Of a DNA stretch of 64,000 bases, positions 6,147 to 58,628 are shown piece after piece. The DNA lies in the NCBI GenBank assembly GCA_038897035.1, contig JAWAXF010000006.1:3773-67772 (forward strand), in the 5' to 3' direction. Source of the DNA: Candidatus Bathyarchaeia archaeon. Its GTDB lineage: Archaea; Thermoproteota; Bathyarchaeia; Bathyarchaeales; DTEX01. Positions within the stretch are counted from its first letter, which is position 1, and every line of letters starts with the position of its first letter. Below the pieces are notes generated by a model. That model was not told the DNA's origin. It saw only the letters and a program-made list of their open reading frames with translations, and did no database searches. A program made the position numbers and the translations under genes.

Positions 6147-6232
6147 ATATTATTCATGTTATATTATGCATTATTATATTGTGCATAATATAACCTTTAT
6201 GGTCTAATGATCTAAGCTAGCCTAAAAAGAAT

Positions 6233-7737: not shown

Positions 7738-7742
7738 TTATA

Positions 7743-8315
7743 TTAGCCCCTTTGGATGCCTAAGCCAGCATATATAGTTTCAACCTCTGCAGATTCGTTA
7801 TTCTTCATTATAGTTTCGATAACCTTCCGGCACCAGACGACAGTATTCGGGTTACCGCCGTAAACCCACGCTCTAGGCTCGATATCAGGGCCCGCTATGG
7901 ATGAAGAGCCACCAGTAAATATCACCATTATTCTTCTCTGCGTTGAACCCAACGCTATGGGGGACTCAGCATATAAGTCATTTCTCCCAATAATACTCAC
8001 GCGGACATGGTATCCACCATCCATCTCTAATATGCTGAGGTTGTAGGGTTTCCCGTTAATTGCTGCTGGAAGGTTTAGGTGCTTTGAGACTGCTTCGGTT
8101 TCTGAAAGCATGCCGTAGACGAAGTCCGTTAGGCTGATTATGTTAGTTATGCTCATTGAAGTATACTCTGCTATCTGGCTCAGCTGAGTTTTAATAACGT
8201 TCCCCTCAACATAGCCAACAACAATCTGGTAAGCTAGGGCAAGGGACACGGCCAAACCTATTAGGGCAACCGTCCCAATAATATGTTGTAGTGACACGTG
8301 CACCATCCCTGCCAC
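7743..8315 (-). CDS. Pilus-associated membrane-anchored protein
   Basis: Single N-terminal hydrophobic helix (IIGTVALIGLAVSLALAYQIVVGY). 190 aa, with 1-5 nt spacing to its neighbours. Confidence 0.4.
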   Translation of the reverse strand: MAGMVHVSLQHIIGTVALIGLAVSLALAYQIVVGYVEGNVIKTQLSQIAEYTSMSITNIISLTDFVYGMLSETEAVSKHLNLPAAINGKPYNLSILEMDGGYHVRVSIIGRNDLYAESPIALGSTQRRIMVIFTGGSSSIAGPDIEPRAWVYGGNPNTVVWCRKVIETIMKNNESAEVETIYAGLGIQRG

Positions 8316-8316
8316 C

Positions 8317-9099
8317 TCACATTATAGAAACATTTATAAGGACCTCCACAATCCTAACAATAGATACCCCCGATATCCCCGGATAGTCTGCATGATGTTC
8401 ATCGACATTAACGTGAACCATCAAGTCGCTGGATCCGCTAAGCTGTATTGACGCCATGTTTATATCTCTATTTTGAACCCTGACGGAAACTGTTCCCGAG
8501 CCACCAAATACCCCTGGCTCAAGGCGAATTAAGTAGATGTCTAATGTTCCAAGGTTCTCGTTTTTTATGATCCGCACCCTATTATAGTCCAGCACTATCC
8601 ACGCTTCGTTCCCAATCTCTATTCGAACATACCCCAGGGGCTTAGATAGGTCCGTAATTATTAGTCCGCCTGGATTTGTTAGGTTCATTTGCGCCACTGA
8701 GACCATGCTCCCCCCACGATACTTAATGATATAGGTGGAATTGACATAAGTGTATAGGGTGCGGCTTGGGCTAGAAATTGTTACATTAATTAGCCCGCCC
8801 TTATATACGCCTATTCCCCCGCTCCTTTGGTTGAATTGGACTGAGCTTGCGGCTCCAGGTCTCAGTGATACGTCCATTATTGTTTTGTCCAGTAGTAACA
8901 TGGCTGTCTTAGCCTGCTCGAACTCAGAGTTCTGCATCTGGATCTCCAGCAGGTTTGTTGCGAAGAAGGAGGCTATAACGAGAATTACGAGTAGCGTTGC
9001 GGTTATAATTACCATAGATATAACTGGTGAGACACCCCGCTTCACTAGGGTTCTACCATCATAAATTACTCTTAGCCTCCGCAATGCTCTGTTTAACAC
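8317..9099 (-). CDS. Archaeal pilin-like protein (class III signal peptide, DUF361-type N-terminus)
   Basis: KRG/VSPVISMVIITATLLVILVIA matches the archaeal prepilin motif [KR]G-[VI]SPVI. Confidence 0.6.
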   Translation of the reverse strand: MLNRALRRLRVIYDGRTLVKRGVSPVISMVIITATLLVILVIASFFATNLLEIQMQNSEFEQAKTAMLLLDKTIMDVSLRPGAASSVQFNQRSGGIGVYKGGLINVTISSPSRTLYTYVNSTYIIKYRGGSMVSVAQMNLTNPGGLIITDLSKPLGYVRIEIGNEAWIVLDYNRVRIIKNENLGTLDIYLIRLEPGVFGGSGTVSVRVQNRDINMASIQLSGSSDLMVHVNVDEHHADYPGISGVSIVRIVEVLINVSIM

Positions 9100-9130
9100 C
9101 TCCTATCTCTTTTCCCCCATTATGCCTATA

Positions 9131-10882
9131 CTAGAACTTTAGGAACATGCCGAAGAAACGCATGAATATTATCGAGAACATGGCAATGAGCGTGAGTATT
9201 ACAGCATGCCTAAAGCCTGCCGAAACATTTCCAGTGCTGACCTTCCCGGTCACTATACCCATTATATATGACTGGAAGACCAGTGCTGGAACAATTGTCA
9301 CCAGTATTTGCGTGAATGGGATCATTGCGCGTGCTATCGACATAACTGCGGAGCGCATGAAGTTTATCATCACAATTGTCGAGAAGACCATTAATGCCGC
9401 GCCTATGTATGGCATTATTATTAGTGGGCGGAGGGCAGCCATCTTCTCCTTCTCGAGGGAAGCCTGCATCTCACCGAACCTAGCCATAGTCTCAAGGGTT
9501 TCTGAGCTGCCCCCGCCAATTTCTATCGCATCGACAAGAAGATATAGATTGATTAAGGCGAACCAGGAGCTTATTCTCCTCTTCAGGGTCTCATATATAA
9601 CTCTTATCGGTTGGCCCCACCGCAACTGTCGGGCAACTATTCTCAAATGTCTACTGAAAGCCCCATAGGGTCTCGATGATAACTGTGTTATGCACGCCTC
9701 TGGTGAAGCGCCAGTTTTCCTAGCCTCCGTCATATCCCTAAGGAAGTTTGTTACTTCATTAACCACCTTCCTACCCCTGCGGCGCTCATAGTAGCTATGG
9801 GCTACCGCCGCTGGAACTGTTCCGGCTATTAAAGCTATCCCCATACCCAGTGAGGGTTCCAATCCCTGCTCTATATCCAGTAGCACTCTGAGGGAAGTCA
9901 AGAGGTCTTTGAATTGTTTTATTAAGGGTATCAGTGCGAGTTCTGGTGTGAGGTATGGGAGGACCATCGTGAAGATTAGGATGCTCATTATTGGTAATGA
10001 TGCCATGAAAATCCTGTACGGCATGGTCTCATATGTTGGCTCATTAAAGCTAGATAGATCCGATAGATAGATGAAGATTATTGAGAGGACCGGCACAAGG
10101 ATGTATGAGTACAATAGGAAGTTCTCGGCCGTGAAGCCCCCCTGCCAGTATCCACGGAAAGCTATTGAGGTTAAGTATACTATGCTTATGCCAAGGGTCC
10201 CCAGAATTATTATTGCGACGTATGATTCCAGGAGCATTGCGGCGCGCTCCCCAAATATCCTTATCTTCGCCGCCAGGTCCCTAAACATCATCTCCGTGCG
10301 CGTCAGAAGGTAATGCACAACGTCGCCGCCAGCCCTCAGCGTGTAAACGTAGCCCAAAAGGAACTCCTTATACTCCTTTGAGGGTGCCCTCTCAGATGAC
10401 TTCTCTATTGCCGCTATTGGATCCATGCCCTTTAAATGCACATCTATATCAATCTGCTTGGCTGTCTTAGATGTATGTGGAAGGAGCTCGCAGCCCTTCA
10501 GTCTCTTTAGGCTTGAGTATGGCGATAGGCCGCCCGTAGCCATGACGCTCACGTAAGCGGCCATGAATGGCGCCTCCATGTCTAGCTTTGATGCTCTATC
10601 CTGGGCCTTTACGCTTGGCAGGGCGTATCCGATTAGGAGGATTATTATAGGGACAATAGCTATTGGATAGAGGCCGGTAAGCCATATGAGGGCCGCTGAG
10701 GCTGCTACGGATATTACTAGGAAGAGGCCAATTAATGAGAGGTACGCTTCTGGGTATATTCTTATTCCAGCAGCCTCCAGTGAGTCCCTTAACCTGGATG
10801 AATTTCCACCATAAAATATTTTTATTAGGATGTTTGATAACCACCAGAAGCTCTGGTACGTTAGGCCTGTGAAAGAAACCAT
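9131..10882 (-). CDS. Type IV pilus/archaellum assembly platform membrane protein (FlaJ/TadC/PilC-like)
   Basis: 583-aa polytopic membrane protein with two similar halves. Sits directly downstream (3-nt gap) of the secretion ATPase, the canonical I-J arrangement. Confidence 0.8.
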   Translation of the reverse strand: MVSFTGLTYQSFWWLSNILIKIFYGGNSSRLRDSLEAAGIRIYPEAYLSLIGLFLVISVAASAALIWLTGLYPIAIVPIIILLIGYALPSVKAQDRASKLDMEAPFMAAYVSVMATGGLSPYSSLKRLKGCELLPHTSKTAKQIDIDVHLKGMDPIAAIEKSSERAPSKEYKEFLLGYVYTLRAGGDVVHYLLTRTEMMFRDLAAKIRIFGERAAMLLESYVAIIILGTLGISIVYLTSIAFRGYWQGGFTAENFLLYSYILVPVLSIIFIYLSDLSSFNEPTYETMPYRIFMASLPIMSILIFTMVLPYLTPELALIPLIKQFKDLLTSLRVLLDIEQGLEPSLGMGIALIAGTVPAAVAHSYYERRRGRKVVNEVTNFLRDMTEARKTGASPEACITQLSSRPYGAFSRHLRIVARQLRWGQPIRVIYETLKRRISSWFALINLYLLVDAIEIGGGSSETLETMARFGEMQASLEKEKMAALRPLIIMPYIGAALMVFSTIVMINFMRSAVMSIARAMIPFTQILVTIVPALVFQSYIMGIVTGKVSTGNVSAGFRHAVILTLIAMFSIIFMRFFGMFLKF

Positions 10883-10885
10883 GCT

Positions 10886-12511
10886 TTAGCTAACCCCCCT
10901 TCTTATAGCTACTGCTGGGAATGGGTTTAATAGGCGGTACCTTGTTATTTCGGTTCTAACATCTGTGTTGCTTCTGACGCCGCGACTCAGTAGGTCGCGG
11001 AAGAGTAGAGCTCTTCTGGTGAGCTCCTCTAAGACTTTTTCTACGCTTATGCCATATTTTATAGCTATTCTATTGAGCATCTCGCTCTTCCTAAAGCTGT
11101 GTGTATACGTGTCGGTTATTGGGTTCCAGGAGGCTATTGTCTCATATCTATCATAGTCGATTATCTCGTGGACCTCGCGTATTCTCCTGCCAAAGGTTAG
11201 CCCCATTCTAGGTCTCGGCAGCTGGGCTCTTTCCTGAACTATGGCGACGTTTACGAGCGGTATATAGCTCTCCGCCACGTTCATAGGCGGACTCGTCAGC
11301 CTCTTCACGGCGTGTTCTAGGCTCTCTGCGTGGATTGTTGTTAGACCTCCGTGGCCTGTAGCCATGGCCTGGAATAGTACGAATGCCTCTTCTCCTCTTA
11401 TCTCGCCTACTATGATGTAGTCTGGTCTGTATCTTAAGGAGACCTTGACTAGATCGAATAGGCTTATCTCGCCTGTCTTTGATGCACCGAGTCCGTAGCT
11501 GGTTCTGCCGACCAGCTGAACCCAGTTCTCATGGGGAAACATTAGCTCTGGTATCTCTTCGACCGTCACTATTTTCATTGATGGCTTAACTAGGCTTGCG
11601 ATTACGTTGAGGGTTGTTGTCTTGCCAGCGCCTGTTCCGCCTATCACCATCATCGTCATCCTGTTCTCGACTAATAGCCAGAAGTATGCCGCAAGCATCT
11701 CGTCAATTGTTCCCAGATTTATTAGGTCTATTATTGAGAATGGCTCCTCCCTAAACCTTCTTATACAGAATGTGCTCCCCCTCGGCGAGACCTCGTATCT
11801 GAATGTTGCAGCGAGCCTGTCCTTTGTTGGGAGCATTGCATCTAATATTGGGAAAGCTGTTGAGATGTGCTTCTGGGCTATGTGCGTGAGCTTTATTAGA
11901 ATGTTATCTAGCGTCTTTTCATCGATTATTTTCAGGTTTGTTGGCATGCTCTCATACTTTCTATGCCAAACGTATATGGGTATGTTGAGGCCGTTGACGG
12001 ATATGTCCTCGATCATCCTGTCGCTCATTATGACGTGTAGTGGGCCGAAGCCTATTAGGTTTCTATGCAAGTAGTATAGGATTTTACGCCAAGATTCCTC
12101 GCCAAGGCGCTTGATGTGTCTAGTTAAGCCATATTTTTTGGCGAGTCTCTCCGCCTCGCTCTCAACATATTTGTATGGGTCGACCGCCTCTTCGGGCGGG
12201 GGCTCGATCTCGACACTAACAATGTCGATAAGCTTATTGAAGATTATGTGTTCCTCGGGGGATAACTCAACCTCCTCAATAAAGTAGGCCCTTTCGCCGC
12301 CGAGGTCTGGGAGGGATGCTATTGTAACCTTAGAAAAGGGGTTATGGATCGGATAGGATTCTATTATCTTGGCATTTTCCGGGATCTTGGAAAAGACAGC
12401 TACTGGCGGTGGAGGGACAATCTTCTTCGCAAACAACTTCTTGAAGAGGGAGGAGAAAGCCCCTCGCCCACTACCCTCAACAACACCCACAAAATCCACC
12501 TCAACATCCAT
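10886..12511 (-). CDS. Type II/IV secretion-family assembly ATPase (FlaI/PilB/VirB11-like)
   Basis: Walker A GGTGAGKTT, then the VGEIRGEEA and TGHGGLTTIHA boxes typical of T2SSE/FlaI ATPases. 541 aa. Confidence 0.88.
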   Translation of the reverse strand: MDVEVDFVGVVEGSGRGAFSSLFKKLFAKKIVPPPPVAVFSKIPENAKIIESYPIHNPFSKVTIASLPDLGGERAYFIEEVELSPEEHIIFNKLIDIVSVEIEPPPEEAVDPYKYVESEAERLAKKYGLTRHIKRLGEESWRKILYYLHRNLIGFGPLHVIMSDRMIEDISVNGLNIPIYVWHRKYESMPTNLKIIDEKTLDNILIKLTHIAQKHISTAFPILDAMLPTKDRLAATFRYEVSPRGSTFCIRRFREEPFSIIDLINLGTIDEMLAAYFWLLVENRMTMMVIGGTGAGKTTTLNVIASLVKPSMKIVTVEEIPELMFPHENWVQLVGRTSYGLGASKTGEISLFDLVKVSLRYRPDYIIVGEIRGEEAFVLFQAMATGHGGLTTIHAESLEHAVKRLTSPPMNVAESYIPLVNVAIVQERAQLPRPRMGLTFGRRIREVHEIIDYDRYETIASWNPITDTYTHSFRKSEMLNRIAIKYGISVEKVLEELTRRALLFRDLLSRGVRSNTDVRTEITRYRLLNPFPAVAIRRGVS

Positions 12512-13234: not shown

Positions 13235-14323
13235 CTATGAGCTGGGTTGCTTCTCCCGCGCGCTCTCCTCAATCATCCTCATTACACAGTCTTTAACTTT
13301 AGCCGCAATCTCCTGAAGATCCTTACCCTCAACAACCTTCATATTATATGCCTCCGCCAAGTCTCTGCTGCCCTCATCAATGCCGCTCGGCGTCACCATA
13401 ATCTTATGCAGGATGCCAACGTCGGTAGCTTTAGCCCAGAGGGCCATGACGTCCGCCGCCGAGGCAGCCTTATCGGAGAGATAAAGTGAGCCAACAATGA
13501 TTGGTGGGGCATCATCACTATGCCACACGGCGAAGGAGAAATCGTGCTTAATACCAGACCTACCATAGAGGGTTACAGGAGCCTTAACAGTGAGACCTAC
13601 GTCCCTAATAGGCTTAAGAATAACCTCAATATCAAAGGTGAGGCGCTCAATCAAAACCCTCTTCTCAGGATTAACCTTAAATGCCATAACACTATAAACC
13701 ACAAGATCGTTCTCGCCGAAAACATGCCCACTGCTACACAGGTACTCAACCTTTGGATCCGAGAAGGCACTTTTACAGCTCAAGCACCTATAGAGGGAAC
13801 TGAAGACTCTATAGTCTACACCAAGCTGCCCAAGAGGCTTCCTGCAATTCAGGCAGAGTAAGCCCTCTCCACTCCTAAACTTATCCTCAAAATCTATGTG
13901 CCCACAAGCTAGGTGCTCAATCATCCTACCCCTAACGAGCCTAGAGGAGCCGCATGAGGGGCATTGATACCTAATCATAAGCCTATGAGACTGGCAGTGG
14001 GGGCAAATAGCAATATTATCCACAACCTCAGAGCTTAGTACGCCAGCCTCGCATAGAAGGTGAAGAGATTCCCTAATATCCTTCGCGGAGCCAACCGTAT
14101 TATTAAAAGCAGGGTATCTAACAGCATCTCTGAACTCAACTTTAGGTTCTATAACATCAATATCCATACCTTTTAAAGCCCTAAGTACCCTCTGAACCTT
14201 CTCACTTCCCAGCAAACTCAACATATCAGACAAGGGAAGGACACCAACAAAAAACGTTAGAACACAAAATACTATATAAGCATTACTAATTGAAGTAAAA
14301 ACATCCTCGCCCAGCAGCAACAT
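13235..14323 (-). CDS. Membrane-anchored protein with multiple zinc ribbons and a C-terminal alpha/beta (restriction-endonuclease-fold-like) domain
   Basis: N-terminal TM helix, then CPHCQSH..CPSCGS, CLNCRK and CLSCKS (three CxxC pairs). The C-terminal region GRSGIKHDFSFAVWH...IIVGSLYLSDK...KIMVTPSGI follows. Lies upstream of and co-oriented with the pilin gene. Confidence 0.45.
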   Translation of the reverse strand: MLLLGEDVFTSISNAYIVFCVLTFFVGVLPLSDMLSLLGSEKVQRVLRALKGMDIDVIEPKVEFRDAVRYPAFNNTVGSAKDIRESLHLLCEAGVLSSEVVDNIAICPHCQSHRLMIRYQCPSCGSSRLVRGRMIEHLACGHIDFEDKFRSGEGLLCLNCRKPLGQLGVDYRVFSSLYRCLSCKSAFSDPKVEYLCSSGHVFGENDLVVYSVMAFKVNPEKRVLIERLTFDIEVILKPIRDVGLTVKAPVTLYGRSGIKHDFSFAVWHSDDAPPIIVGSLYLSDKAASAADVMALWAKATDVGILHKIMVTPSGIDEGSRDLAEAYNMKVVEGKDLQEIAAKVKDCVMRMIEESAREKQPSS

Positions 14324-44863: not shown

Positions 44864-46375
44864 TTAAAGCCCCTCTTTAAACGCTCTGTACGTTGCATAG
44901 TCCACGTAGTTGATGAATTTGCTCTCCGCCTGATACTTAACGGTGAACTTCTGCCTGTCCCTCTTATCCTTAATCTGGCTTGTGGTTACGAGGAGGTAGG
45001 CATCGCTCCCCGCTCCTGAGCCATAGCTGACGATCATTATCCTCTTGTGGGGCTCAGCTTGATCTAATACTGCGGCTAAGCCTATAAGCGAGGAAGCTGA
45101 GTAGGTGTTGCCAAACTTTGTCACCTGTATCCCCGGCAAATACTGCTCTGGCTTAAAGCCTAGTGCAGCAGCCGCCCTCGCTGGGAAGGTTGGGTTTGGC
45201 TGGTGGCAAACGAAGTAGTCTATGTCGCTTGGCTTAAGGTTCATCTTCTCCATGAGCTTCTTGCCAGCCTTAAGGACATGCTTAAAGTATGCCGGTTCCC
45301 CGGTGAAGCGGCCTCCATGTCGCGGGTATGGCTCCATGTCCCTCCTCCAGAAGTCCGGCGTATCAGATGTGCAGGAGCACCAGCCCTCAACCTCTGCAAT
45401 AACATCTTTTTTACTGAATATGAAGGCCGCTCCCCCGTATCCAACAAAATAGTCCAGCTCCCCGCCCGGCTCACATCTGGGCGCTGCTTGGGAATTATCG
45501 GCGCCAATAACCATTACATATTCCATTGGATTCTTGGGATAAAATGTTAAGGCCACCGCATCCTTAAACATGCTAGAAGCGGCCTTACAGGCAAATTCTG
45601 TGTCAACCGCGTCCACCACCTGCACTCCATCAGGATCATCCTCGCCGAGCTTTAGAACCTGCGCTACTTTAGAGGCTATTGGATTAACGGCATATGGATT
45701 AGATTCCGTGCCAACGTAAACCTTGCCTATAAGCCCGCTATCCACGCCTGAGTGTATTAGCGCTAGCTTCCCAGCCTCAACTGCGGCTGTTATCGCATCC
45801 TCGTCTATAAACGGGACTGAGCGCTCCAAATTCGCTTCTTTGATTCTAAACTTTGAGACATATACGCCGTAGCTCACTATCCCCGGGGCGTCGTACTCCT
45901 TCTTTGGTTTGAGTACTTCATATCGCTGGTACGGGTAATATTCATCAGCAAAAGTGAAGGCTAGCGAGATTGTTGGTATGATATCGCTTTTGCCAACCGA
46001 GCACCTACGCCTAAACCTCGGCACAACTTCCCTACCCTCAAGTTCATCCAGGTCTATTTCCTTATCAACGGTGTAGACCACGTCAGTTAATCGGCCGGGA
46101 ACTCTCACTTTCCCATTATGGAAGGATATTATTCCGTATATAAAGGGAGCGAGCTTCATAAACCTGTTCGTTGGCTCTCTGATGATAGTGCACGCCTCAA
46201 GCACGCCCTTCTCATAGAAGAGATCTATCTCCTCCATCTTTCCCAGACTCTTTCTACCACAGTTCCCACAGTATCTTTTTGGCTTAAAGTACTCTCTACC
46301 GCAGATTGGGCACCTACTGCCCTTAAGCCTATCGCCTACATAGGTAACCCTTCTCTCCATCGGTTCGCTACTCAT
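44864..46375 (-). CDS. Fusion protein: DUF35 (zinc-ribbon + OB) N-terminal domain plus HMG-CoA synthase
   Basis: RCPICGREYFKPKRYCGNCGR plus an OB segment, then an HMGCS core with VGTESNPY and catalytic Cys in DTEFACKAA. I chose the start at MSSEPMERR, which overlaps the thiolase stop by 8 nt. The ORF track extends to 46459. Confidence 0.8.
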   Translation of the reverse strand: MSSEPMERRVTYVGDRLKGSRCPICGREYFKPKRYCGNCGRKSLGKMEEIDLFYEKGVLEACTIIREPTNRFMKLAPFIYGIISFHNGKVRVPGRLTDVVYTVDKEIDLDELEGREVVPRFRRRCSVGKSDIIPTISLAFTFADEYYPYQRYEVLKPKKEYDAPGIVSYGVYVSKFRIKEANLERSVPFIDEDAITAAVEAGKLALIHSGVDSGLIGKVYVGTESNPYAVNPIASKVAQVLKLGEDDPDGVQVVDAVDTEFACKAASSMFKDAVALTFYPKNPMEYVMVIGADNSQAAPRCEPGGELDYFVGYGGAAFIFSKKDVIAEVEGWCSCTSDTPDFWRRDMEPYPRHGGRFTGEPAYFKHVLKAGKKLMEKMNLKPSDIDYFVCHQPNPTFPARAAAALGFKPEQYLPGIQVTKFGNTYSASSLIGLAAVLDQAEPHKRIMIVSYGSGAGSDAYLLVTTSQIKDKRDRQKFTVKYQAESKFINYVDYATYRAFKEGL

Positions 46376-47606
46376 TTCTCTCTCTCCCCAGTATATGAAC
46401 GTAGATCTTCGTCCCAAAACCCTCCATCTCTTGGACGCAGCCATAAAGTAGGTCGCCATCCGTCTTTACCTGCCTCTGACCAGCCTCGCCCCTAAGCTGC
46501 TTAACAACCTCAAAGATTTGGGCTCCGCCAGTTGCGCCAAGCGGATTTCCATCAGCCTTTAATCCGCCATCGCTGTTCACAAAAATCTCTCTACCACAAA
46601 AATCATAGTAGCCATTGAAGTCATTAAAGTTCTCATAGAGCTTTATCCACGCAGTCCCCCTCTCAACGAACCCGAGATCCTCAAGTGAGACCATTTCAAG
46701 TATTGTTGATTGGTCGTAGACCTCCAGCAAATTTATGTCATCAAGGCTTATTTTCGCCATTTTCAGCGCCTTCTCCATGGCTATTCTGCTCGCTATGAAA
46801 CCGGATCTGTATGGTCTGGAGGGGTAGGAGATGTAATCGGTCGCTGATGCCGATGCGAGCACGTAAATTGGTTCACTAGCATATTCTTTAGCTCTCCTCG
46901 AGCTCGTTAATACGAGGGCTGTTGCGCCGTCAGATATCGGAGCAAAGTCATATATGCCAAGAAGTTTGCGCTCCTCCCTCCTGGCCGCTAAAACCCTTTC
47001 AACATCGATCTCCCTTCTGAGGTGGGCATACTCGTTCCATAGGGCATTGCGGTGATTTTTAACTGAGATTTGCGCTAATGTCAGCATGAGCTTCTCGCGG
47101 TCATCTCGGCTAATCTTATATTCCTTAATGTATTCTCTGAGGAGGAGCTCGTGGTCGGATTCGGGCGTTCCGCCGGAATAATAGCTCCAGCGGTCCGTGA
47201 AGAGCATGAGGTCATCCCTTATTTTACTCAATCTATCAGTCATCTTCTCGATCCCGCCAACAAGGACAACGTCGTATTTGCCAGCCTCTATAGCATGACA
47301 GGCATTCATGAGCGCCGAGCTAAAGGAGCGCATCCTCTCAATCGGTATATTCATTTCTAGTAGCTGAGAGATGAAACCCTCTTCCAGACCCATTTTGCTG
47401 GTGATTTGGAGCAGGTAGTCTGAAATGTAACATGCTTCTAAATCCTTCCGCTCAATCCCAGCGGACTCAAGGGCCATCAACCCCGCCTCATCAATAAGAT
47501 CCTCGGGGTCTACCTCAAAATGCTCACCAAACCTAGTCCTACCAACACCAACTATCGCGGGTGGACCACCGCTCATAACTTCTCCCAGCACTTCTTTTAG
47601 GCGCAA
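46368..47606 (-). CDS. Archaeal acetyl-CoA acetyltransferase (thiolase)
   Basis: IVGVGRTRFGE N-terminus, thiolase-fold length, and GNPLGATGGAQIFE near the C-terminus. Confidence 0.85.
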   Translation of the reverse strand: MRLKEVLGEVMSGGPPAIVGVGRTRFGEHFEVDPEDLIDEAGLMALESAGIERKDLEACYISDYLLQITSKMGLEEGFISQLLEMNIPIERMRSFSSALMNACHAIEAGKYDVVLVGGIEKMTDRLSKIRDDLMLFTDRWSYYSGGTPESDHELLLREYIKEYKISRDDREKLMLTLAQISVKNHRNALWNEYAHLRREIDVERVLAARREERKLLGIYDFAPISDGATALVLTSSRRAKEYASEPIYVLASASATDYISYPSRPYRSGFIASRIAMEKALKMAKISLDDINLLEVYDQSTILEMVSLEDLGFVERGTAWIKLYENFNDFNGYYDFCGREIFVNSDGGLKADGNPLGATGGAQIFEVVKQLRGEAGQRQVKTDGDLLYGCVQEMEGFGTKIYVHILGRERNE

Positions 47607-47684: not shown

Positions 47685-49115
47685 ATGGAGCGCGTCGGGA
47701 TTCTTGTGGTCTCCTATGGTTCTAGGGAGGCTGCTATGGTCGATGCCTTCGTGAGGAGCCGTGAATATAAGGTTGACCTCTACATAGCCGATAGGCAGAG
47801 AAACCCATTTAATCTCCGTAGAGCAAAGGAGCATGCCGTCATACCCGACCTCAACATTAACGCCATATATAAGTTCGCCGAGAGGCACAGAGGTGAAATA
47901 GACTTCGGCATAGTTGGCCCAGAGAAGCCAATAATTGAGGGGATAAGGGACCTAATCGAGGGCCGCCTTGGCATACCAATGATATGCCCGACAAAAGAGT
48001 ATTCCCTCGAGAGAAGCAAGGTTCTACAGAGGATTCTGTTTCAAGAGGTTGTTCCTGAGGCGAATCCGAGGTTTAAAGTGTTTGATCCAAAAGATTATAG
48101 CAGTACAGAGGAGGTTAAAAGGGACCTATATAGATGGCTTGACGAGCTCGGCGATAGGGTGGCTGTTAAGCCGGATGCCCCAGCGGCTGGTAAGGGAGTT
48201 GGGGTTTGGGGAGATCACTTCAACACCCGAGAAGAACTCCTGGAGCATTTCCTAGCGAACTTTAAGGTTGGGCCAGTAATAGTTGAAGAGAAGATTGAGG
48301 GCGAGGAATCTAGCTTCCAAGCCTTTTGTGATGGGAAGCATATCGTACCCCTGCCGGAGACAAGGGACTATAAGAGGGCCTTCGACGGAGATAGGGGACC
48401 GAACACCGGCGGGATGGGGACGTATAAGGATAGGGGGTATATCCTACCCTTCATGAGAACCAAAGATTGGGAGGAGGAAAAGAGGTTAATTGAGAGAATC
48501 TTTGAGAGGCTCAAGGGCGGCGGATCAAACCCAAACCTGAGGGGGATGCCCTTCTATGAAGCTTTTATCCACACTGGTAGGGGGCCGATGATACTTGAGA
48601 ACAATAGTAGGCCAGGCGACCCGGAGATAATACCAATACTGGCCCTATTAAAGGACGACTTCGTCAACATATGCTTCAGGATTATTGAGGGCACCTTAAC
48701 ACGCATCGACATTGAGGATAAAGCGGCGGTTGTCGTCTATAAGGTTCCGCCAGCCTACGGCGGATACATAAACACCTTCCCGCACCTAGTTAACAAGGAT
48801 GAGGTTGGAACCCCAGTTATCTTAGAAGAGGCTGAGAGGCTTTCGGAGAAGTATGGTGACAAAATTAGGATTTATCCCGGCTCAATGGAGCTACGCGATG
48901 ATGGAAGAACTTACGCGCTTTCCTCCAGGGCAGTCGCGGTTCTGGGAGTGGCAGACAGTATCCAAGGTGCCCGCGAGATAGCCATGGATGGCATAAGGAC
49001 CATTAGGGGCGGGTCTCTGTGGTATAGGGGCGACATAGCCTCGAGGGAGCACATTGAGCGGAGCATAAGGCACATGGAGGACTTGAGGAGGAGGGCTCGG
49101 TGGCAATCTACATAA
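47685..49115 (+). CDS. PurD-family (phosphoribosylamine--glycine ligase-like) ATP-grasp protein, divergent
   Basis: FGIVGPEKPIIEGI, AAGKGVGVWG, NTGGMGTY and C-terminal YRGDIA all parallel PurD. The N-terminal GGREHA box reads GSREAA. Confidence 0.7.
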   Translation: MERVGILVVSYGSREAAMVDAFVRSREYKVDLYIADRQRNPFNLRRAKEHAVIPDLNINAIYKFAERHRGEIDFGIVGPEKPIIEGIRDLIEGRLGIPMICPTKEYSLERSKVLQRILFQEVVPEANPRFKVFDPKDYSSTEEVKRDLYRWLDELGDRVAVKPDAPAAGKGVGVWGDHFNTREELLEHFLANFKVGPVIVEEKIEGEESSFQAFCDGKHIVPLPETRDYKRAFDGDRGPNTGGMGTYKDRGYILPFMRTKDWEEEKRLIERIFERLKGGGSNPNLRGMPFYEAFIHTGRGPMILENNSRPGDPEIIPILALLKDDFVNICFRIIEGTLTRIDIEDKAAVVVYKVPPAYGGYINTFPHLVNKDEVGTPVILEEAERLSEKYGDKIRIYPGSMELRDDGRTYALSSRAVAVLGVADSIQGAREIAMDGIRTIRGGSLWYRGDIASREHIERSIRHMEDLRRRARWQST

Positions 49116-50176
49116 CTGACTGCGAGGGACCGATCTCAAAGAACGATAACGCATTTGAATTCACGAGTTGGCTTATACCAAACGGCGATAAACTATTCAC
49201 CATAGTGAGTAGGTACGATGATATCCTAGCCGATATTGTTAAGAGACCGGGGTATAAGGCTGGCGACACGCTTAAGCTAATAATTCCGTTCCTAAAGGCT
49301 TATGGGGCGACAAATGATCTTATGAGACGCTTCTCCTCGGAGACACTATTGCTCATGCCGGGATCCGCCGAGGCGCTGCACTACATTAAGTCGATTATGC
49401 CATCCTTTATAGTCAGCACAAGCTATGAGCCCTATATAGATGCTCTCTGCAGGGCCATAGACTTCCCGAAGGAAAATGTTTACTGCACGGGGGTAAACAT
49501 GGACGGATTTGAGGTTACAGACAAGGAGATAGAGAGACTGAGGGTGTTGAAGGAAGAGATCGTGGGGATGCCGATGATAGAGGTTCCAGCGGAGGCTAGG
49601 TCGCTGGAGGATCTACCTCCTAGAACACGGGATGTAATTAGACGCCTCGATGAAATCTTCTGGAGTGAGATAATGGGTATGAGGGTTGGCAGGGCGCTGA
49701 GGGAAGTGAATCCGATTGGTGGATATGAGAAGGCTAGGGCTGTTGAGGAGATAGTCACATTAACTTATGGGAGATTATCGTCAGTCATCTATATTGGAGA
49801 CAGTATAACCGATGTGGAGCCCTTCAGGCTGGTTAGGGCCGGGGGCGGCCTAACAATATCATTTAATGGAAACCAATATGCTATCAGGGAGGCTGAGGTG
49901 GCTGTCCTATCACATGACGCAATCATCCTGGCGGTGATAGCTGAGCAATTCAAGAGGTACGGTAAGGAGCATGTGCTAAGCTTAGCGGAGGAGTGGGACA
50001 TATCTTCCCTAGAGGATCACTGTAATCCCTCTCTACTGGAGCGCCTTAGATGTCTTTATCCGGAAAGGGCGCCATGGGTTGAGAAGATAACGCCGGAAAA
50101 CATGGAGCGCCTAGCGCATGAGAGCACCGCCTTCAGGAAGACTGTTAGGGGAGAAGCGATAGGATCCTTAGGCTAA
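49100..50176 (+). CDS. HAD-fold-like protein (from memory, resembles proteins annotated EhaR in methanogens)
   Basis: Motif I-like ITDCEGP and motif IV-like GDSITD. GTG start overlapping the PurD-like gene by 16 nt. Confidence 0.5.
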   Translation: MAIYITDCEGPISKNDNAFEFTSWLIPNGDKLFTIVSRYDDILADIVKRPGYKAGDTLKLIIPFLKAYGATNDLMRRFSSETLLLMPGSAEALHYIKSIMPSFIVSTSYEPYIDALCRAIDFPKENVYCTGVNMDGFEVTDKEIERLRVLKEEIVGMPMIEVPAEARSLEDLPPRTRDVIRRLDEIFWSEIMGMRVGRALREVNPIGGYEKARAVEEIVTLTYGRLSSVIYIGDSITDVEPFRLVRAGGGLTISFNGNQYAIREAEVAVLSHDAIILAVIAEQFKRYGKEHVLSLAEEWDISSLEDHCNPSLLERLRCLYPERAPWVEKITPENMERLAHESTAFRKTVRGEAIGSLG

Positions 50177-50309
50177 AGGTTAATAGCCTCTCTCCCTCCT
50201 GAGGAGGTTCTCAGGCGGATAAATTTGTCAAGGTGCTGTGTCTCAAGGCGAAAGAAGACTGGGAGGAGAAAAAGAGGCAGCCTCAGGCGCCGATCAATAC
50301 AACATAGTC

Positions 50310-51260
50310 ATGGTTATTTTTTATAATTTCTTGTTTCTATTTTGGGGATCAAATTTGGGCGTGTTCATCGAGGATACATATGCTGAGGCCTTTGAGGGCC
50401 TATACTTCAGGATAATTGTCACGGCGGATGACCTCTGGACCCTTAGGAGGGCCGCTGAGGACTCGACTGCCACACCCTCAACTGTAATAGGCAGGATAGA
50501 GGGTGGGATAGAGCGCTGGATCCCCGGGAGTGAGACGCCCGATGGAAGACCCGGAGTCATACTACAGTTCTGGAGTGGAATAGATGAAAATAAGCCCCTA
50601 AATGATACCGTGATGAGATTCTACAGGGAATTTTCTTATAGGGTTAGGCAGGACGTCCTCGTTAAGCCTTTCACAGCGGTCTTTGACGCGTGCCCAAACC
50701 CGATAGGTAGGGTTGACACGATGGAGTTTATAGGGCACTGCGGCGACGGTTACGAGTGGATCGAGAGCCTATATGGCCGGGAAATGATAGTTGTCCCAAT
50801 AATGGTTCCGGACTTCAAGATTGAGCGCTACCTAGGCTATGGGCGCGGGGTCATGGGCGGAAACTTCTGGTACATGTGCCGAACAAAAAGGGCTGTCCTA
50901 AGAGCGGGAAAGAAGATCCTAAAGGCTATAAGTGAGGTTGGGGGCGCGGTTACGCCATTCGACATATGCTCAGCGGGCTCCAAGCCAGAGACGAAGTTCC
51001 CGCACATAGGCCCAACGACAAACCACCCCTACTGCCCATCACTAAAGAAGAGGCTGGGCCCGGAGTCAAGGGTTCCAGAGGGTGTGCGTTATATCCCGGA
51101 GATAGTGATAAATGGGTTGACCTTGGACTCCGTTAAAGAGGTTATGAAGGTTGGGATAAAGGCAGCCTCCTCAGTTGAGGGTGTTGTGAGGATCTCCGCC
51201 GGAAACTATGGAGGTAAACTGGGTAAGTATAAGATTTACTTGAGGGATCTTTTGCCATGA
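50310..51260 (+). CDS. ftr: Formylmethanofuran--tetrahydromethanopterin formyltransferase family protein (start uncertain: ORF opens at 50238, ATG at 50310, TTG/GTG at 50355/50361)
   Basis: [37 protein letters not shown] and [20 protein letters not shown] all parallel canonical Ftr. A TTTTTATAA box lies at ~50318. Confidence 0.85.
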
Positions 51261-52171
51261 CTCTAGATGTCATCTGTTTCGGCGCCCTGAACATGGATAA
51301 GCTCTATAGGGTTGATAGGCTGGCTGGGGCTGATGAGGAGAGCATAATACTCGACTTTAAGGAGGCTCCGGGCGGCTCCGCCGCTAACACGGCTGTGGGT
51401 TTGGCGAGGCTTGGCGTGAGTGTTGGCTATATTGGAAAGGTAGCTGACGACAGGGAGGGGAGGTTACTACTCAAATCCTTTATAGATGAGGGTGTGAACA
51501 TCGGCGGAATAATTGTCTCAAAGACCAGCAGGAGTGGAACCGTTATAGGCTTTGTGGATCAGCGGGGTAACAGGGCGCTGTATCTAGACCCAGGGGCAAA
51601 CGATACATTAGAGTTTAATGAAATCAACATAGAATACGCTAGGAACGCCAAAGTACTACATCTGACCTCATTCGCCGGCAAATCCCCCTTCGAGGCGCAG
51701 AAAAATCTTCTAGAAAGCTTACCTGAGAGCGTTAAGGTGACAATTGATCCAGGAAGAATATATGCTCGAAAGGGGTTTGATGCGCTTAAGCCGATGATTA
51801 GAAGGAGCTACGCATTCCTACCGAGCGAGGAGGAGCTATGTCTCCTGACTGGCGAGGACGATTATAGGAGGGGGGCAAAAATCCTCTTGGAGGAGGGCGT
51901 GAAGGTCGTTGCCGTAAAGCTTGGTGAGAAGGGCTGCTATGTTACAGACGGATCGGAGAGCCATATCCTCAGGCCCTTCAAAGTTGAGGTAGTTGATACG
52001 ACCGGTGCAGGGGACGCCTTCTGCGCAGGCTTCATATATGGGCTCCTCAGGGGAAAAAGCCTCAGGGACTGTGGAATCCTGGGGAACTTTGTTGCCTCAA
52101 GATGCCTAACAAGAATGGGAGCCAGAGAGGGCCTCCCAAGGCTAGAGGATCTACCAAGCGATCTACGCTAA
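51257..52171 (+). CDS. PfkB-family (ribokinase-like) sugar/nucleoside kinase
   Basis: GGSAANTA N-terminal motif and DTTGAGDAF catalytic motif. ATGA overlap with ftr. Confidence 0.85.
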
Positions 52172-52249: not shown

Positions 52250-52882
52250 GTGCATCTAATGAGTACGGTGAATCCCCGAAGCAGGCTATTCTCGCTTCTA
52301 GCTAAGGAGTTTGAGACTTTTATTCCACAATTTAAGCCATATACTACAGACTATCAAATGGTCGCTTACGCCTCAAAGGATCTGGAGACATGGTTGAAAG
52401 TTAAGATGGGAATTGACGATGCCGAGGCCCTCTACAAGATGGTTGAGGAGACATATAGAGGGGGACCTAGGGACCCCAGGACCCCAGTGGGCTTCTGGGC
52501 TGACATGTGGCTTAAAAAGTGGCGGGAGCGCGTTAAAATCCTCTCAACAAAATTTGAGGAGCCGAGGGATCATGTCGAGAGAGTCAAGAGGGCCAGGAAA
52601 ATATTCCAGGAAATGGATTGGAGAAATGAGCTAAGAAAGATGATCATTAAGAAGCTTATAGAGCACGGCGAGATCTGCATGACGGAGTTCATAGCCGATA
52701 ACCTGATAATTGAGGAGATAGCAAGGCGCCTACAGAGGGCTGACAATAATAGCATAATAGCCTTAGATCCACTAAGCATATACAATGCTGTTAGCTCAAG
52801 AATTGTAAGATTATCAAAGGAGAAGGGGCCACTGGTATATTTAAGTATAAAGCCCGGCTTATTTCAGCATAATAATTACTAA
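52250..52882 (+). CDS. Hypothetical protein (possible C-terminal wHTH)
   Basis: 210-aa ORF with coding-like composition and no motif I recognise. Lies upstream of a single-domain KaiC-like gene. Confidence 0.3.
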   Translation: MHLMSTVNPRSRLFSLLAKEFETFIPQFKPYTTDYQMVAYASKDLETWLKVKMGIDDAEALYKMVEETYRGGPRDPRTPVGFWADMWLKKWRERVKILSTKFEEPRDHVERVKRARKIFQEMDWRNELRKMIIKKLIEHGEICMTEFIADNLIIEEIARRLQRADNNSIIALDPLSIYNAVSSRIVRLSKEKGPLVYLSIKPGLFQHNNY

Positions 52883-52930: not shown

Positions 52931-53722
52931 ATGCGTGTTGAACGGTTATCAACCGGCATCCCAGAACTAGATGCCATGCTTGAGGGCGGCATACCGAAGG
53001 GCTTTATGGTAGCGATCACCGGCGAGCCTGGCACAGGAAAAACAATACTTTGTATACACTTTATTGCACAAGGCGTTAATGAGGGGGATAAATGCATCTA
53101 CGTCACAACCGAGGAGAGCAGAGAGTCTATTATTACACAGGCAGCCCAGTTCGGCTTCAGCTTTTCAAGCGGCATCTCCGAAAAGAAGATGATAATAATT
53201 GATGCTCTAATGGGGCGCCAGGATGAGTGGTCGCTGCAAAGCCTGGATGTCGAGGAGCTCATGAATAAAGTTATTGAGGCTAAGAGGGCCTTGGGTTACG
53301 GCAGGGCGCGCCTAGTAATAGATTCGTTATCGGCGTTCTGGCTTGATAAGCCGGCGATGGCGAGGAGATATTCATACTTCGTGAAGAAGGTCCTCTCAAA
53401 GTGGGACTTCACAGTCATGGCAACCTCACAGTACGCTATAACAACCTCCGAGGCCTTCGGATGGGGTGTAGAGCACATAGCAGACGGCATAATAAGGTTC
53501 AGAAGATTCGTTAGGAACGGCATTTTAAGGCGCTATTTACTCATTGAGAAGATGAGGCAGACAAACCACAGCCTACAGATGCACGAGATACTGATCTTAC
53601 CCGGCAGGGGCCTAACAATAATCGGCCCGGTCGAGATGAGGAAAGAGGACATAGCTCTACCAAGACACATCATGGAACGGATCCAAAAGGCGGCGGAGAG
53701 GAGAGAGGCTGAGGCGCCATAA
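52931..53722 (+). CDS. Single-domain KaiC/RadA-like ATPase
   Basis: STGIPELDAMLEGGIPKG, Walker A GEPGTGKT, Walker B-like RLVIDSLS. 263 aa. Confidence 0.8.
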   Translation: MRVERLSTGIPELDAMLEGGIPKGFMVAITGEPGTGKTILCIHFIAQGVNEGDKCIYVTTEESRESIITQAAQFGFSFSSGISEKKMIIIDALMGRQDEWSLQSLDVEELMNKVIEAKRALGYGRARLVIDSLSAFWLDKPAMARRYSYFVKKVLSKWDFTVMATSQYAITTSEAFGWGVEHIADGIIRFRRFVRNGILRRYLLIEKMRQTNHSLQMHEILILPGRGLTIIGPVEMRKEDIALPRHIMERIQKAAERREAEAP

Positions 53723-57066: not shown

Positions 57067-57702
57067 ATGGCGAAAGACATGTTCTCCTTCCTGAAACGTA
57101 TCATAGAAGGTAGAAGGAGCATTAGACTCTATTTATCAAGGGATGTGCCGCAAGAGACTATTCTTAGAATTACTGATGCTAGCAGATGGGCTCCATCTGC
57201 GCATAATGCTCAGCCATGGCGCTTTGTAATAATATTTGATCCAAGTGTTAAGAGGAGGTTGGCTGAGGCGATGGCTTCGGATTGGCTAAAGGATCTTGAA
57301 GGAGATGGTGTCCCCGCAGAAGAGGCTAAGAGACTAGCCGAGGAGTCTATTAAGCGCTTTTCGGAGGCGCCAGTCCTAATAGTTGCTGCAATAACTATGA
57401 GGGAGATGCATAAATATCCTGATAGGCGGAGACAGAAATCTGAGCATTTGATGGCGACTCAGAGCTTAGCCGCAGCAATACAGAATATTCTTTTGGCCGC
57501 TCACGCTGAGGGGCTAGGTGCATGTTGGTTCTGCGCACCCCTCTTCTGCCAAGAAACCGTTAGAAGAATCTTAAAAATGCCCCGCGATATTGAGCCCCAA
57601 GCTTTAATAACAATCGGTTACCCAGCCGAGAGCCCCAGGCCTCCGCCTAGAAAGCCACTTAAGGAAATAGCCTTTAAAGATTATTGGGGTAAAAGCCTAT
57701 GA
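57067..57702 (+). CDS. Nitroreductase-fold flavoprotein (FbiB C-terminal-domain-like), coupled to cofD
   Basis: RRSIRLY...APSAHNAQPWRFVII is the nitroreductase signature. The stop overlaps the cofD start (ATGA). Confidence 0.75.
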   Translation: MAKDMFSFLKRIIEGRRSIRLYLSRDVPQETILRITDASRWAPSAHNAQPWRFVIIFDPSVKRRLAEAMASDWLKDLEGDGVPAEEAKRLAEESIKRFSEAPVLIVAAITMREMHKYPDRRRQKSEHLMATQSLAAAIQNILLAAHAEGLGACWFCAPLFCQETVRRILKMPRDIEPQALITIGYPAESPRPPPRKPLKEIAFKDYWGKSL

Positions 57703-58628
57703 TAACTGCCTTAGCTGGCGGCGTAGGCGCCGCAAAGTTTCTCTCAGGACTCGTCAAAGTGATCCCGGAAGAAGAGCTGACGATTATCGTTAATACTGGA
57801 GATGACATAGAACTCTATGGATTGCATATTTCACCGGACTTAGACATAGTTACTTATACCTTGGCCGGCATAGTCGATGAGGAGAGAGGCTGGGGTATAA
57901 GGAATGATACATTCAACTGTCTAGAGATGCTGCGGAGGTACGGTTATGAGACATGGTTTAATTTGGGCGATAGGGACCTTGCAACACATATCCATAGAAC
58001 ACTCCTTTTAAAGAGGGGCTTAAAGCTATCCCAAGTAACAAGGGAAATATGTAAAAGCTTAGGCGTGAAAACTAACATAATCCCGATGACAGACGATAAA
58101 TTTGAAACATGGATTGAAACCGACGCTGGACTAATGCATTTTCAAGAGTATCTGGTCAAAAAGGGCGCTAGAGATAGGGTTTTGGGAGTAAAATATTTAG
58201 GCGCTGAGGAGGCTAAGCCCGCCGAGGGCGTTATTGAGGCAATCCTTAACAGCAGGCTAGTGATCATTTGCCCAAGCAACCCCATCGTGAGCATAGGCAC
58301 GATATTATCTATTAGGGGTGTAAGAGAAGCTCTAAGAGACAGCAGAGCCCCTAAAATAGCCATAAGCCCAATAGTTGGGGGAATGCCGATAAAGGGTCCT
58401 GCGGATAAATTGATGAGAGGTCTTGGGTTAGAAGTTTCAGCATACTCAGTGGCATACTTATATAGGGACTTTTTAGATAACTTTGTTCTAGACAACATAG
58501 ATAAAGAAGAAAAGGATAAAATAGAGAGCCTCGGGATAAAGGTTATCTTAACTAATACCATAATGAAAACACCAGAAGATAGGGTGAAGCTCGCTAAATT
58601 AGTCCTTGAAGAAGGCCTTAGAAAATAA
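57699..58628 (+). CDS. cofD: 2-phospho-L-lactate transferase (F420 biosynthesis, CofD/FbiA)
   Basis: ALAGGVGAAKF, VNTGDD and SPDLDIVTYTLAG are typical CofD motifs. Confidence 0.85.
   Translation: MITALAGGVGAAKFLSGLVKVIPEEELTIIVNTGDDIELYGLHISPDLDIVTYTLAGIVDEERGWGIRNDTFNCLEMLRRYGYETWFNLGDRDLATHIHRTLLLKRGLKLSQVTREICKSLGVKTNIIPMTDDKFETWIETDAGLMHFQEYLVKKGARDRVLGVKYLGAEEAKPAEGVIEAILNSRLVIICPSNPIVSIGTILSIRGVREALRDSRAPKIAISPIVGGMPIKGPADKLMRGLGLEVSAYSVAYLYRDFLDNFVLDNIDKEEKDKIESLGIKVILTNTIMKTPEDRVKLAKLVLEEGLRK

Follow-up and report, generated by a model that had tools for sequence, protein, structure and literature searches.

A PurD–EhaR–Ftr2–EhaT gene module of Bathyarchaeia as a candidate for the missing archaeal glycinamide ribonucleotide formylation step

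Results

In a stretch of 64,000 nucleotides (nt) from a Candidatus Bathyarchaeia archaeon (GenBank assembly GCA_038897035.1, contig JAWAXF010000006.1, positions 3,773 to 67,772 of the forward strand), hereafter the window, four co-directional genes at 47685-52171 encode a PurD-like ATP-grasp ligase, a haloacid dehalogenase (HAD)-fold protein, a formyltransferase of the Ftr family and a PfkB sugar kinase. We find that this module is purD joined to the EhaR–EhaS–EhaT set, a known but uncharacterised trio, in a new and informative context. Genomic context and phyletic pattern lead us to propose, with a confidence that we would call evenly balanced, that the trio supplies step 3 of purine synthesis, in which glycinamide ribonucleotide (GAR) becomes formylglycinamide ribonucleotide (FGAR), without PurN or PurT, and that EhaS, or Ftr2, would be a formylmethanofuran-dependent GAR transformylase. 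A replacement of PurN/PurT linked to methanofuran or tetrahydromethanopterin (H4MPT) was one of two possibilities raised in the initial annotation of this DNA, and it is now the best-supported explanation. The features of the module are as follows.

47685-49115, + strand: purD-like ATP-grasp ligase (476 amino acids, aa) of a divergent GAR-synthetase subfamily, with GARS_N/A/C domains
49100-50176, + strand: EhaR-like HAD-fold protein (358 aa; COG4030/K14109 family), from the naming of homologs and an AlphaFold (AF2) model
50177-50354, + strand: intergenic spacer of 178 nt, AT-rich, from direct reading of the sequence
50355-51260, + strand: ftr2/ehaS-type formyltransferase (301 aa from the probable start TTG 50355), with FTR and FTR_C domains
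51257-52171, + strand: ehaT-type PfkB sugar kinase (304 aa), with a PfkB domain

The module sits among purine genes in related genomes

We scanned one genome per GTDB species for EhaR, which returned a relative in at least 594 genomes, and counted synteny in the best 80, all of them Bathyarchaeia. The gene neighborhoods are conserved. A PurD-like gene lies directly upstream of ehaR at 60 of the 61 assessable loci, Ftr2 is found no more than 2.5 kb downstream at 59 of 70, and Ftr2 together with PfkB at 55 of 70. Such recurrence of the same order, in 55 of the 80 species-level Bathyarchaeia genomes, puts the linkage of the four genes well outside what chance would give. Among relatives, ehaR and ftr2 are separated by as little as 8 nt or as much as 1.7 kb, in some cases with inserted genes between them, which fits an organization into two putative sub-operons, purD–ehaR and ftr2–pfkB.

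Other purine genes recur around this unit. The gene immediately preceding the PurD-like gene is purF at 29 of 58 loci, convergently oriented purL/purQ face the kinase at 33 of 80, and purM is within 10 kb at 24 of 80. The clearest arrangement is that of locus L061, where purF–purD–ehaR–ftr2–pfkB stands head-on to purQ–purL–purM, i.e., steps 1 and 2, the trio, and steps 4 and 5. The genome BA2 (L026) has, in succession, purF-like, purD-like, ehaR, a membrane protein gene, purJ (inosine monophosphate [IMP] cyclohydrolase only), ftr2, pfkB and purM. No PurN or PurT homolog was seen in any of the ±10 kb flanks searched. In many of these relatives, the set lies inside a purine cluster, where the gene for the missing archaeal GAR formyltransferase would be expected. 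The statement in the initial annotation that no other purine or one-carbon (C1) genes are adjacent thus holds for the window ORFs that were scanned and fails in related genomes (purF, purQ/L/M); likewise, the module is autonomous only in the window's own sub-lineage and not in relatives with flanking pur genes.

A folate-type formyltransferase takes the place of Ftr2 in other lineages

A second survey, seeded with the Archaeoglobus fulgidus protein AF1437, covered 80 metagenome loci. The neighbors of EhaR in these loci were PfkB (about 20), a PurN-like gene (11) and Ftr2 (6), and at 8 of the 80 a canonical-type purD (50% identical to Aquifex PurD), with or without purF, lay beside EhaR. At five loci (L114, L115, L126, L128 and L132), EhaR–Ftr2 is next to a canonical-type purD and purF, and at two others (L121 and L165) there is a purF–purD–EhaR array with a 4-nt overlap. 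In bacteria and archaea (including L090), the orders PurN-like–EhaR–PfkB or PfkB–PurN-like–EhaR are found instead. In a bacterial (Aerophobetes-like) contig, PfkB is accompanied by a 269-aa PurN-like gene that overlaps EhaR; in contigs of the Methanomethylophilaceae type (Methanomassiliicoccales; L084-L087), a PurN-like gene of 272-275 aa overlaps the EhaR-like gene; and one bacterial protein (P0171) is a PurN-like::EhaR fusion. These PurN-like proteins match the PurN model only, and they keep the equivalents of Asn106, His108 and Asp144, as judged against an Escherichia coli PurN reference sequence. Because two unrelated folds alternate beside the same partners and purF/purD recur nearby, the shared acceptor of both formyltransferases would most simply be GAR.

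The four Methanomethylophilaceae-type loci have a conserved archease / PurN-like / EhaR-like / eIF-1A arrangement, and their EhaR-like proteins lack the HAD nucleophile Asp, motif IV and the conserved C terminus, so that they are likely pseudo-enzyme partners. Since the catalytic Asp has been lost yet the overlap with the PurN-like gene is kept, these loci suggest a physical complex between EhaR-like proteins and the formyltransferase.

The distribution of Ftr2 nearly coincides with the absence of PurN and PurT

In published surveys, neither PurN nor PurT was found in Archaeoglobi, Methanopyrus and four species listed as "Methanomicrobiales," which are M. thermautotrophicus, Methanobrevibacter and Methanosphaera, i.e., Methanobacteriales (Brown 2011, PMC3261824). 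Ftr2 was reported in Archaeoglobales, M. kandleri, Methanothermobacter and the anaerobic methanotrophs ANME-1/2a/2b, and a separate section of the same paper notes the absence of both PurN and PurT from ANME-1, Archaeoglobales and Methanobacteriales, with reference to "an as yet unidentified enzyme" (Chadwick 2022, PMC9012536). The two lists of lineages, those with Ftr2 and those without PurN/PurT, nearly coincide. We found EhaR homologs in two of the lineages that lack PurN/PurT, namely in the eha operon of a Methanobacteriaceae contig (L088) and in A. fulgidus (AF1437). Methanococcales have PurT and a single ftr. A full-text literature search returned no paper connecting the distribution of Ftr2 with the missing PurN/PurT and no published function for EhaR/S/T, Ftr2 or a methanofuran-dependent GAR transformylase.

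The first gene encodes a divergent PurD

The first protein has the three-domain GARS_N + GARS_A + GARS_C architecture, with Pfam scores of 44.2, 110.1 (GARS_A, the ATP-grasp domain) and 26.4 bits, the last being under the GARS_C cutoff of 34.8. On the TIGR00877 purD model (EC 6.3.4.13), it scores 239.8 bits, short of the equivalog cutoff of 288, and its BA2 ortholog scores 264.4. Aligned with four solved PurDs, to which it is about 30% identical, it keeps the ATP-grasp catalytic motifs (AAGKGV, LENNSRPGDPE and GPNTGGMG). Its N-terminal box reads SYGSREAA, and five loops that are near-invariant in PurD are swapped for subfamily-specific versions (sYGsReaA, ICP, RDYKR, EnNSRPGDPE and ALkSRaV). 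For three of them the exchange, with Arg residues kept, is found in 64/64 Bathyarchaeia sequences (GGREHA, QDHKR and sGGRvL becoming sYGsReaA, RDYKR and ALkSRaV), and these are loops that we take to be involved in substrate binding. Since purF is directly upstream in half of the relatives assessed and purQ/L/M are nearby, this protein is probably the real, divergent PurD of its lineage and not a paralog recruited to another task.

EhaR is a HAD-fold protein with an unusual motif I

JGI annotation gives homologs of the second protein the name "energy-converting hydrogenase A subunit R" (EhaR, K14109/COG4030), and the family falls into 639 clusters at 50% identity. At the sequence level the protein matches HAD models weakly (25.7 bits in Pfam versus a cutoff of 27), and the AF2 model, with a predicted local distance difference test (pLDDT) score of 97, has a clear HAD-IB fold, for which the best Foldseek match in the PDB is 1Y8A (AF1437), followed by SerB, ThrH and MtnX. 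The motifs are DxEGP, STSY, GGxEK, GDSITD and, at the C terminus, RGxxIGxLG. Motif I reads DCEGP, with DxE instead of DxD, and is invariant across the family; the nucleophile Asp is intact, and the near-invariant or invariant residues are D7, S/T106-108, K211 and D234/D238. The DxE variant of motif I also occurs in enolase-phosphatase E1. The protein terminates exactly at the conserved ...RKxVRGxxIGxLG, a tail that co-varies with the catalytic motifs and may contribute to the active site or serve to dock a partner.

A side branch of EhaR, with the motif SDWEGPW, is fused or adjacent to an ATP-grasp protein of 550-570 aa, the fusions being 900-970 aa long (loci L082, L083, L092, L093, L110-L113 and L125; proteins P0194, P0216 and P0328-P0346). 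We considered whether the N-terminal part of these fusions is a PurD-like domain and found no similarity; it is instead an ATP-grasp of a distant PurT/PurK type (profile E value of 2.4e-8 to PurT, Foldseek E value of about 1e-16). Two small ORFs are always upstream of the EhaR/ATP-grasp pair, the neighbors are restriction-modification, OLD-family, ThiF/ubiquitin-like and methylase genes, and among the homologs P0341 has a ThsB-like Toll/interleukin-1 receptor (TIR) domain and P0345 a KaiC domain. This side branch may be an undescribed defense-type system. As a third line of support it was set aside, in view of the defense-island-like neighborhoods and the TIR-domain homolog.

The formyltransferase belongs to the Ftr2 clade and the kinase is EhaT-like

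The third protein is a member of the Ftr family, with Pfam scores of 144.8 (FTR) and 188.5 bits (FTR_C). It scores 339.6 bits on NF002554, above the cutoff of 297, and 226.6 bits on TIGR03119 (fhcD), below the cutoff of 292.6. It is 59% identical to Methanobacteriaceae EhaS (L088), whereas its identity to the solved enzymes of A. fulgidus and Methanosarcina barkeri (1M5H/1M5S), which are 68% identical to each other, is 40%. On the basis of these identities, we assign it as an EhaS/Ftr2 ortholog and not the catabolic Ftr. The "PEIVINGL" motif is conserved, and its Glu is presumably the catalytic residue. In a published tree, Ftr2 forms a separate clade, and only Ftr1 enzymes have been characterised (Chadwick 2022, PMC9012536). 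All close homologs are named [quoted passage not shown] in public annotation.

The fourth protein has a PfkB domain (194 bits) and is 39% identical to Methanobacteriaceae EhaT. It scores 165 bits on the ribokinase model (RbsK, TIGR02152; cutoff 299.65) and matches two NCBIfam ribose-1-phosphate kinase models with 143 and 123 bits, far under their cutoffs. The GAGD catalytic motif is present, and the ribokinase GGKGAN, of which the Lys binds ribose, reads GGSAAN.

The trio is known from eha operons

The contig with a Methanobacteriaceae-named EhaR (L088) encodes ehaK, M, N and O, two polyferredoxins, EhaR, an Ftr-like protein and a PfkB kinase, with no PurD-like gene. The statement in the initial annotation that methanogen eha operons end in a similar trio was therefore correct for EhaR and the second Ftr and mistaken about a PurD-like member, the third gene being the PfkB EhaT, as also follows from published work (Kaster 2011, PMC3087415). 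In that work, EhaS and EhaT, whose former annotations were formyltransferase and ribokinase, share a transcript with ehaA-R in Methanothermobacter and have no known function (PMC3087415). Another locus (L089) shows the same EhaR–EhaS–EhaT order without any hydrogenase gene. A hydrogenase link was rejected for the window locus itself: a scan of window ORFs of at least 150 aa turned up neither a hydrogenase nor a polyferredoxin gene, about ten mid-size ORFs being unscanned.

Fine structure of the locus and its surroundings

The four linked ORFs are present on the + strand as the initial annotation had placed them, domain and profile searches agree with its assignment to the PurD, HAD, Ftr and PfkB families, and its smaller readings (the 16-nt overlap of genes 1 and 2, the DCE motif I, the GSREAA box and the ATGA overlap) were accurate. 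Gene 1 ends with a TAA at 49113-49115, gene 2 begins with a GTG behind the Shine-Dalgarno-like run GGAGGAGGG, and gene 4 is coupled to gene 3 through the ATGA. The spacer at 50177-50354 possibly holds an internal promoter; a TATA-like stretch is found at about 50310-50345, upstream of the likely ftr2 start. The longest Ftr ORF opens with a GTG at 50238, which would add a 39-codon N-terminal extension absent from all homologs. This ORF is too long because all Ftr alignments open at its residue 41 and the homologs are shorter (301-311 aa, n = 120 from a profile search whose list, dominated by Bathyarchaeia, served for protein length and not for taxonomic range). The true start is probably TTG 50355, and automatic gene callers may have mis-called it. 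The DNA comes from a hot-spring bathyarchaeon: the best homologs are 83% identical, and the sequence is present in hot-spring metagenomes. Metatranscriptomes from the same hot-spring study gave 0-5 reads over 7.5 kb, which is no basis for judging expression or operon structure.

Around the module, the scanned window ORFs of at least 150 aa and tblastn with pur proteins yielded no further purine or C1 gene, the same ten or so mid-size ORFs being unscanned. None is visible because in the window's sub-lineage (L001-L013) genes for a thiolase and an HMG-CoA synthase lie upstream instead. In the window, these are acetoacetyl-CoA thiolase-like and HMG-CoA synthase-like ORFs at 44864-47606 (- strand), by eye an archaeal mevalonate-pathway pair. 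A 531-aa ORF in this interval has, also by eye, an apparent N-terminal zinc ribbon (CPICG...CGNCG) like that of a DUF35 scaffold protein, which suggests a DUF35–HMGS fusion. Directly downstream of the module are a 210-aa protein without a family match (52250-52882) and a single-domain KaiC (TIGR03881) at 52931-53722, a pair kept in the 12 closest relatives of the window (59-75% identity) and rare elsewhere. A CofD gene (2-phospho-L-lactate transferase, F420 biosynthesis) at 57699-58628, 5.5 kb downstream of the module, is the sole other window gene hinting at methanogen-type cofactors. Farther away, at 4872-12511 (- strand), genes for a T2SSE-type ATPase and a T2SSF-type membrane protein, together with four ORFs without family matches, probably form a type IV pilus or archaellum-like locus, near which a TackOD1-domain protein is encoded at 13235-14323. 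A PADLOC scan of the four module proteins gave nothing meaningful.

Discussion

How the trio might act

In the pathway that homology and gene order would predict, PurF makes phosphoribosylamine, to which the divergent PurD would add glycine to give GAR. Ftr2 would then move the formyl group from formylmethanofuran to the glycine amine of GAR, yielding FGAR for PurL/PurQ; formyl-H4MPT is a less likely alternative donor. In folate-using lineages, a PurN-type enzyme would do the job of Ftr2 beside the same partners. EhaR and EhaT would act on the ribose-phosphate part, in one of two ways. They could run a cycle around the formyl transfer, in which a phosphate is taken off, the product formylated and the phosphate put back on, making this an ATP-driven step; the Bathyarchaeia gene order purD–ehaR–ftr2–pfkB matches such a cycle. 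Alternatively, EhaT and EhaR could convert ribose-1-phosphate to ribose-1,5-bisphosphate and on to ribose-5-phosphate, feeding phosphoribosyl pyrophosphate (PRPP), a route suited by the ribose-1-phosphate kinase models among the best NCBIfam matches of EhaT, though every match is far under its cutoff. In its most specific form, the first version makes step 3 the work of three enzymes, EhaR dephosphorylating GAR, Ftr2 or its PurN-like counterpart formylating glycinamide riboside, and EhaT re-phosphorylating the product to FGAR. We regard this version as rather doubtful; if true, step 3 would be ATP-driven and de novo purine synthesis would have a nonphosphorylated intermediate. As for the methanogens, Eha is anaplerotic, replenishing formylmethanofuran withdrawn from the methanogenic cycle, and placement of the trio in the eha operon would couple the withdrawal of formylmethanofuran for purines to that role.

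Observations that fit poorly and alternative explanations

Several observations weigh against a role of the trio in GAR formylation. The window's own sub-lineage has no other pur gene nearby, with the thiolase/HMG-CoA synthase genes upstream, and 11 of the 70 Bathyarchaeia loci do not have Ftr2–PfkB beside purD–ehaR. EhaR stands without an adjacent partner at roughly half of the 80 metagenome loci, among them those of the closest AF1437 relatives and one from an Aenigmarchaeota. The most frequent partner of EhaR is PfkB, though a plain transformylase needs neither kinase nor phosphatase, and there are EhaR–PfkB pairs without a nearby formyltransferase (L091, L101, L104, L105 and others). The EhaR-like proteins of the Methanomethylophilaceae type have no catalytic Asp. 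Finally, ANME-2a/2b carry PurN as well as Ftr2, an exception to the phyletic match (PMC9012536).

The strongest competitor, which we think unlikely but the least so of the three, holds that the trio acts on a purine-related ribosyl compound other than GAR, with a kinase working first, next a formyl transfer (or removal of a formyl group to the C1 carrier) and last a phosphatase, and that proximity to pur genes reflects shared metabolism rather than step 3. Candidates are the salvage of 5-aminoimidazole-4-carboxamide (AICA) riboside or glycinamide riboside and the deformylation of a formamido-pyrimidine nucleotide, e.g., the product of archaeal GTP cyclohydrolase III. A kinase, a phosphatase and a formyltransferase suit a three-step small-molecule conversion better than a single transformylation, and the EhaR–PfkB pairs without formyltransferase, the bacterial versions beside sugar-transport and LacI-type genes and the IMP-cyclohydrolase-only purJ beside Ftr2 in BA2 point the same way. 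So does the Aenigmarchaeota contig in which EhaR is alone, for to our knowledge DPANN-type organisms usually have no de novo purine synthesis. However, the recurrent partners purF/purD (steps 1 and 2) and purL/Q/M (steps 4 and 5) bracket step 3 specifically, the PurN-type substitutes match the PurN model and no other, and AICA ribonucleotide formylation in comparable archaea is assigned to PurP. The match between Ftr2 and missing PurN/PurT would also have to be a coincidence.

A somewhat less probable explanation is that Ftr2 is a second formylmethanofuran:H4MPT formyltransferase isoenzyme serving an anabolic C1 pool (formyl-H4MPT, or ultimately formate, for PurP-type enzymes), with EhaR and EhaT being unrelated ribose-phosphate housekeeping enzymes (ribose-1-phosphate to ribose-5-phosphate for PRPP) that are co-located with pur genes. 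Public annotation as Ftr, the score above the NCBIfam Ftr subfamily cutoff and the retained "PEIVINGL" favor it, as do the facts that the strongest non-ribokinase similarity of the kinase is to archaeal ribose-1-phosphate kinases, that HAD relatives such as MtnX act on sugar 1-phosphates, and that fusion or clustering within a pathway often involves enzymes that do not act in succession. It nevertheless does not account for the PurN-type enzyme that stands in for Ftr2 among identical partners in folate organisms, nor for the fusion of such an enzyme to EhaR, and it leaves step 3 without an enzyme in the lineages that bear Ftr2. The sequence distance between Ftr2 and the characterised Ftrs, set against the much closer similarity of the latter to each other, also speaks against it, and a normal Ftr role was judged unlikely by Kaster et al. 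(PMC3087415).

That the genes serve to make or alter a cofactor, whether methanofuran, H4MPT or a related molecule with a ribosyl group, the second possibility raised in the initial annotation, or encode accessory subunits of an energy-converting hydrogenase, appears very improbable: H4MPT does contain a ribosyl phosphate and not all late steps of its biosynthesis have been assigned, and the historical EhaR/S/T naming, the co-transcription with ehaA-R in Methanothermobacter and L088 favor a hydrogenase link, but the scanned window ORFs and L089 are free of hydrogenase genes and the recurrent neighbors are pur genes rather than cofactor genes. The cofactor-biosynthesis version in particular is rejected because the set also occurs with folate-type (PurN-type) enzymes in bacteria and Methanomethylophilaceae-type archaea, which, as far as we know, have no methanofuran or H4MPT.

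What a role in GAR formylation would mean

The proposal that Ftr2 formylates GAR bears on a gap recorded since at least 2011: for Archaeoglobi, Methanobacteriales, Methanopyrus and ANME-1, the enzyme of this step is listed as missing. The locus and its relatives join three loose ends, this missing step, the role of Ftr2 and the role of EhaR/S/T, in one testable proposal. If it is true, a universal biosynthetic step would have a third, unrelated enzyme class, methanofuran would be an anabolic formyl donor, and the presence of EhaR/S/T genes in an anaplerotic hydrogenase operon would be explained, while COG4030 and PDB entry 1Y8A would gain a function. It would also correct reconstructions of Bathyarchaeia genomes, in which this "Ftr" routinely serves to mark the archaeal Wood–Ljungdahl pathway: if Ftr2 is not the catabolic enzyme, those that count it towards an H4MPT Wood–Ljungdahl pathway need to be re-checked.

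Comparison with known systems

The closest known arrangement is the tail of the ehaA-T operon of Methanothermobacter (Tersteegen & Hedderich 1999; PMC3087415), which has the same HAD-like, Ftr-like and PfkB genes in the same order. In contrast to that tail, the window locus has no hydrogenase genes and purD is joined upstream, overlapping ehaR; purF and purQ/L/M flank the set in sister lineages of the window, and the module exists as a unit of its own in hundreds of genomes.

Each protein also has a characterised or solved relative. Like canonical PurD (PDB 1GSO, 2YW2, 2YRW), the gene 1 protein has the three-domain architecture, the ATP-grasp catalytic residues and the GDPE motif, and its relatives directly follow purF; unlike it, it falls below the equivalog cutoff at about 30% identity, has five replaced loops, and its stop codon overlaps the ehaR start. 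AF1437 (PDB 1Y8A), a product of structural genomics, is of the same family as the EhaR protein (profile E value of 1e-72, Foldseek template modeling [TM] score of 0.79/0.90) and shares the motifs DxEGP, STSY, GDSIxD and C-terminal RGxxGxLG, whereas it represents a "DWEGPW" subtype whose nearest relatives stand alone in their loci (L096-L100). With Ftr1 (EC 2.3.1.101; PDB 1FTR, 1M5H, 1M5S), the Ftr2 protein shares the two-lobe FTR fold, a full-length alignment and "PEIVINGL," so that it probably still binds formylmethanofuran. It differs in belonging, at 40% identity, to a separate paralog clade and in being accompanied in the genome by pur genes instead of fwd/mch/mtd. Finally, the likeness to the GAR transformylases PurN (folate) and PurT (formate/ATP) would be one of function and not of membership, as none of the four window proteins is in the PurN (Formyl_trans_N) or PurT families. 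What is shared is the proposed GAR to FGAR reaction and the position in the purine cluster, and elsewhere PurN-type proteins occupy the place of Ftr2 beside EhaR and PfkB. The fold of Ftr2 (FTR family) is unrelated to either enzyme, its donor would be formylmethanofuran, and its phosphatase-like and kinase partners have no counterpart in the PurN/PurT systems.

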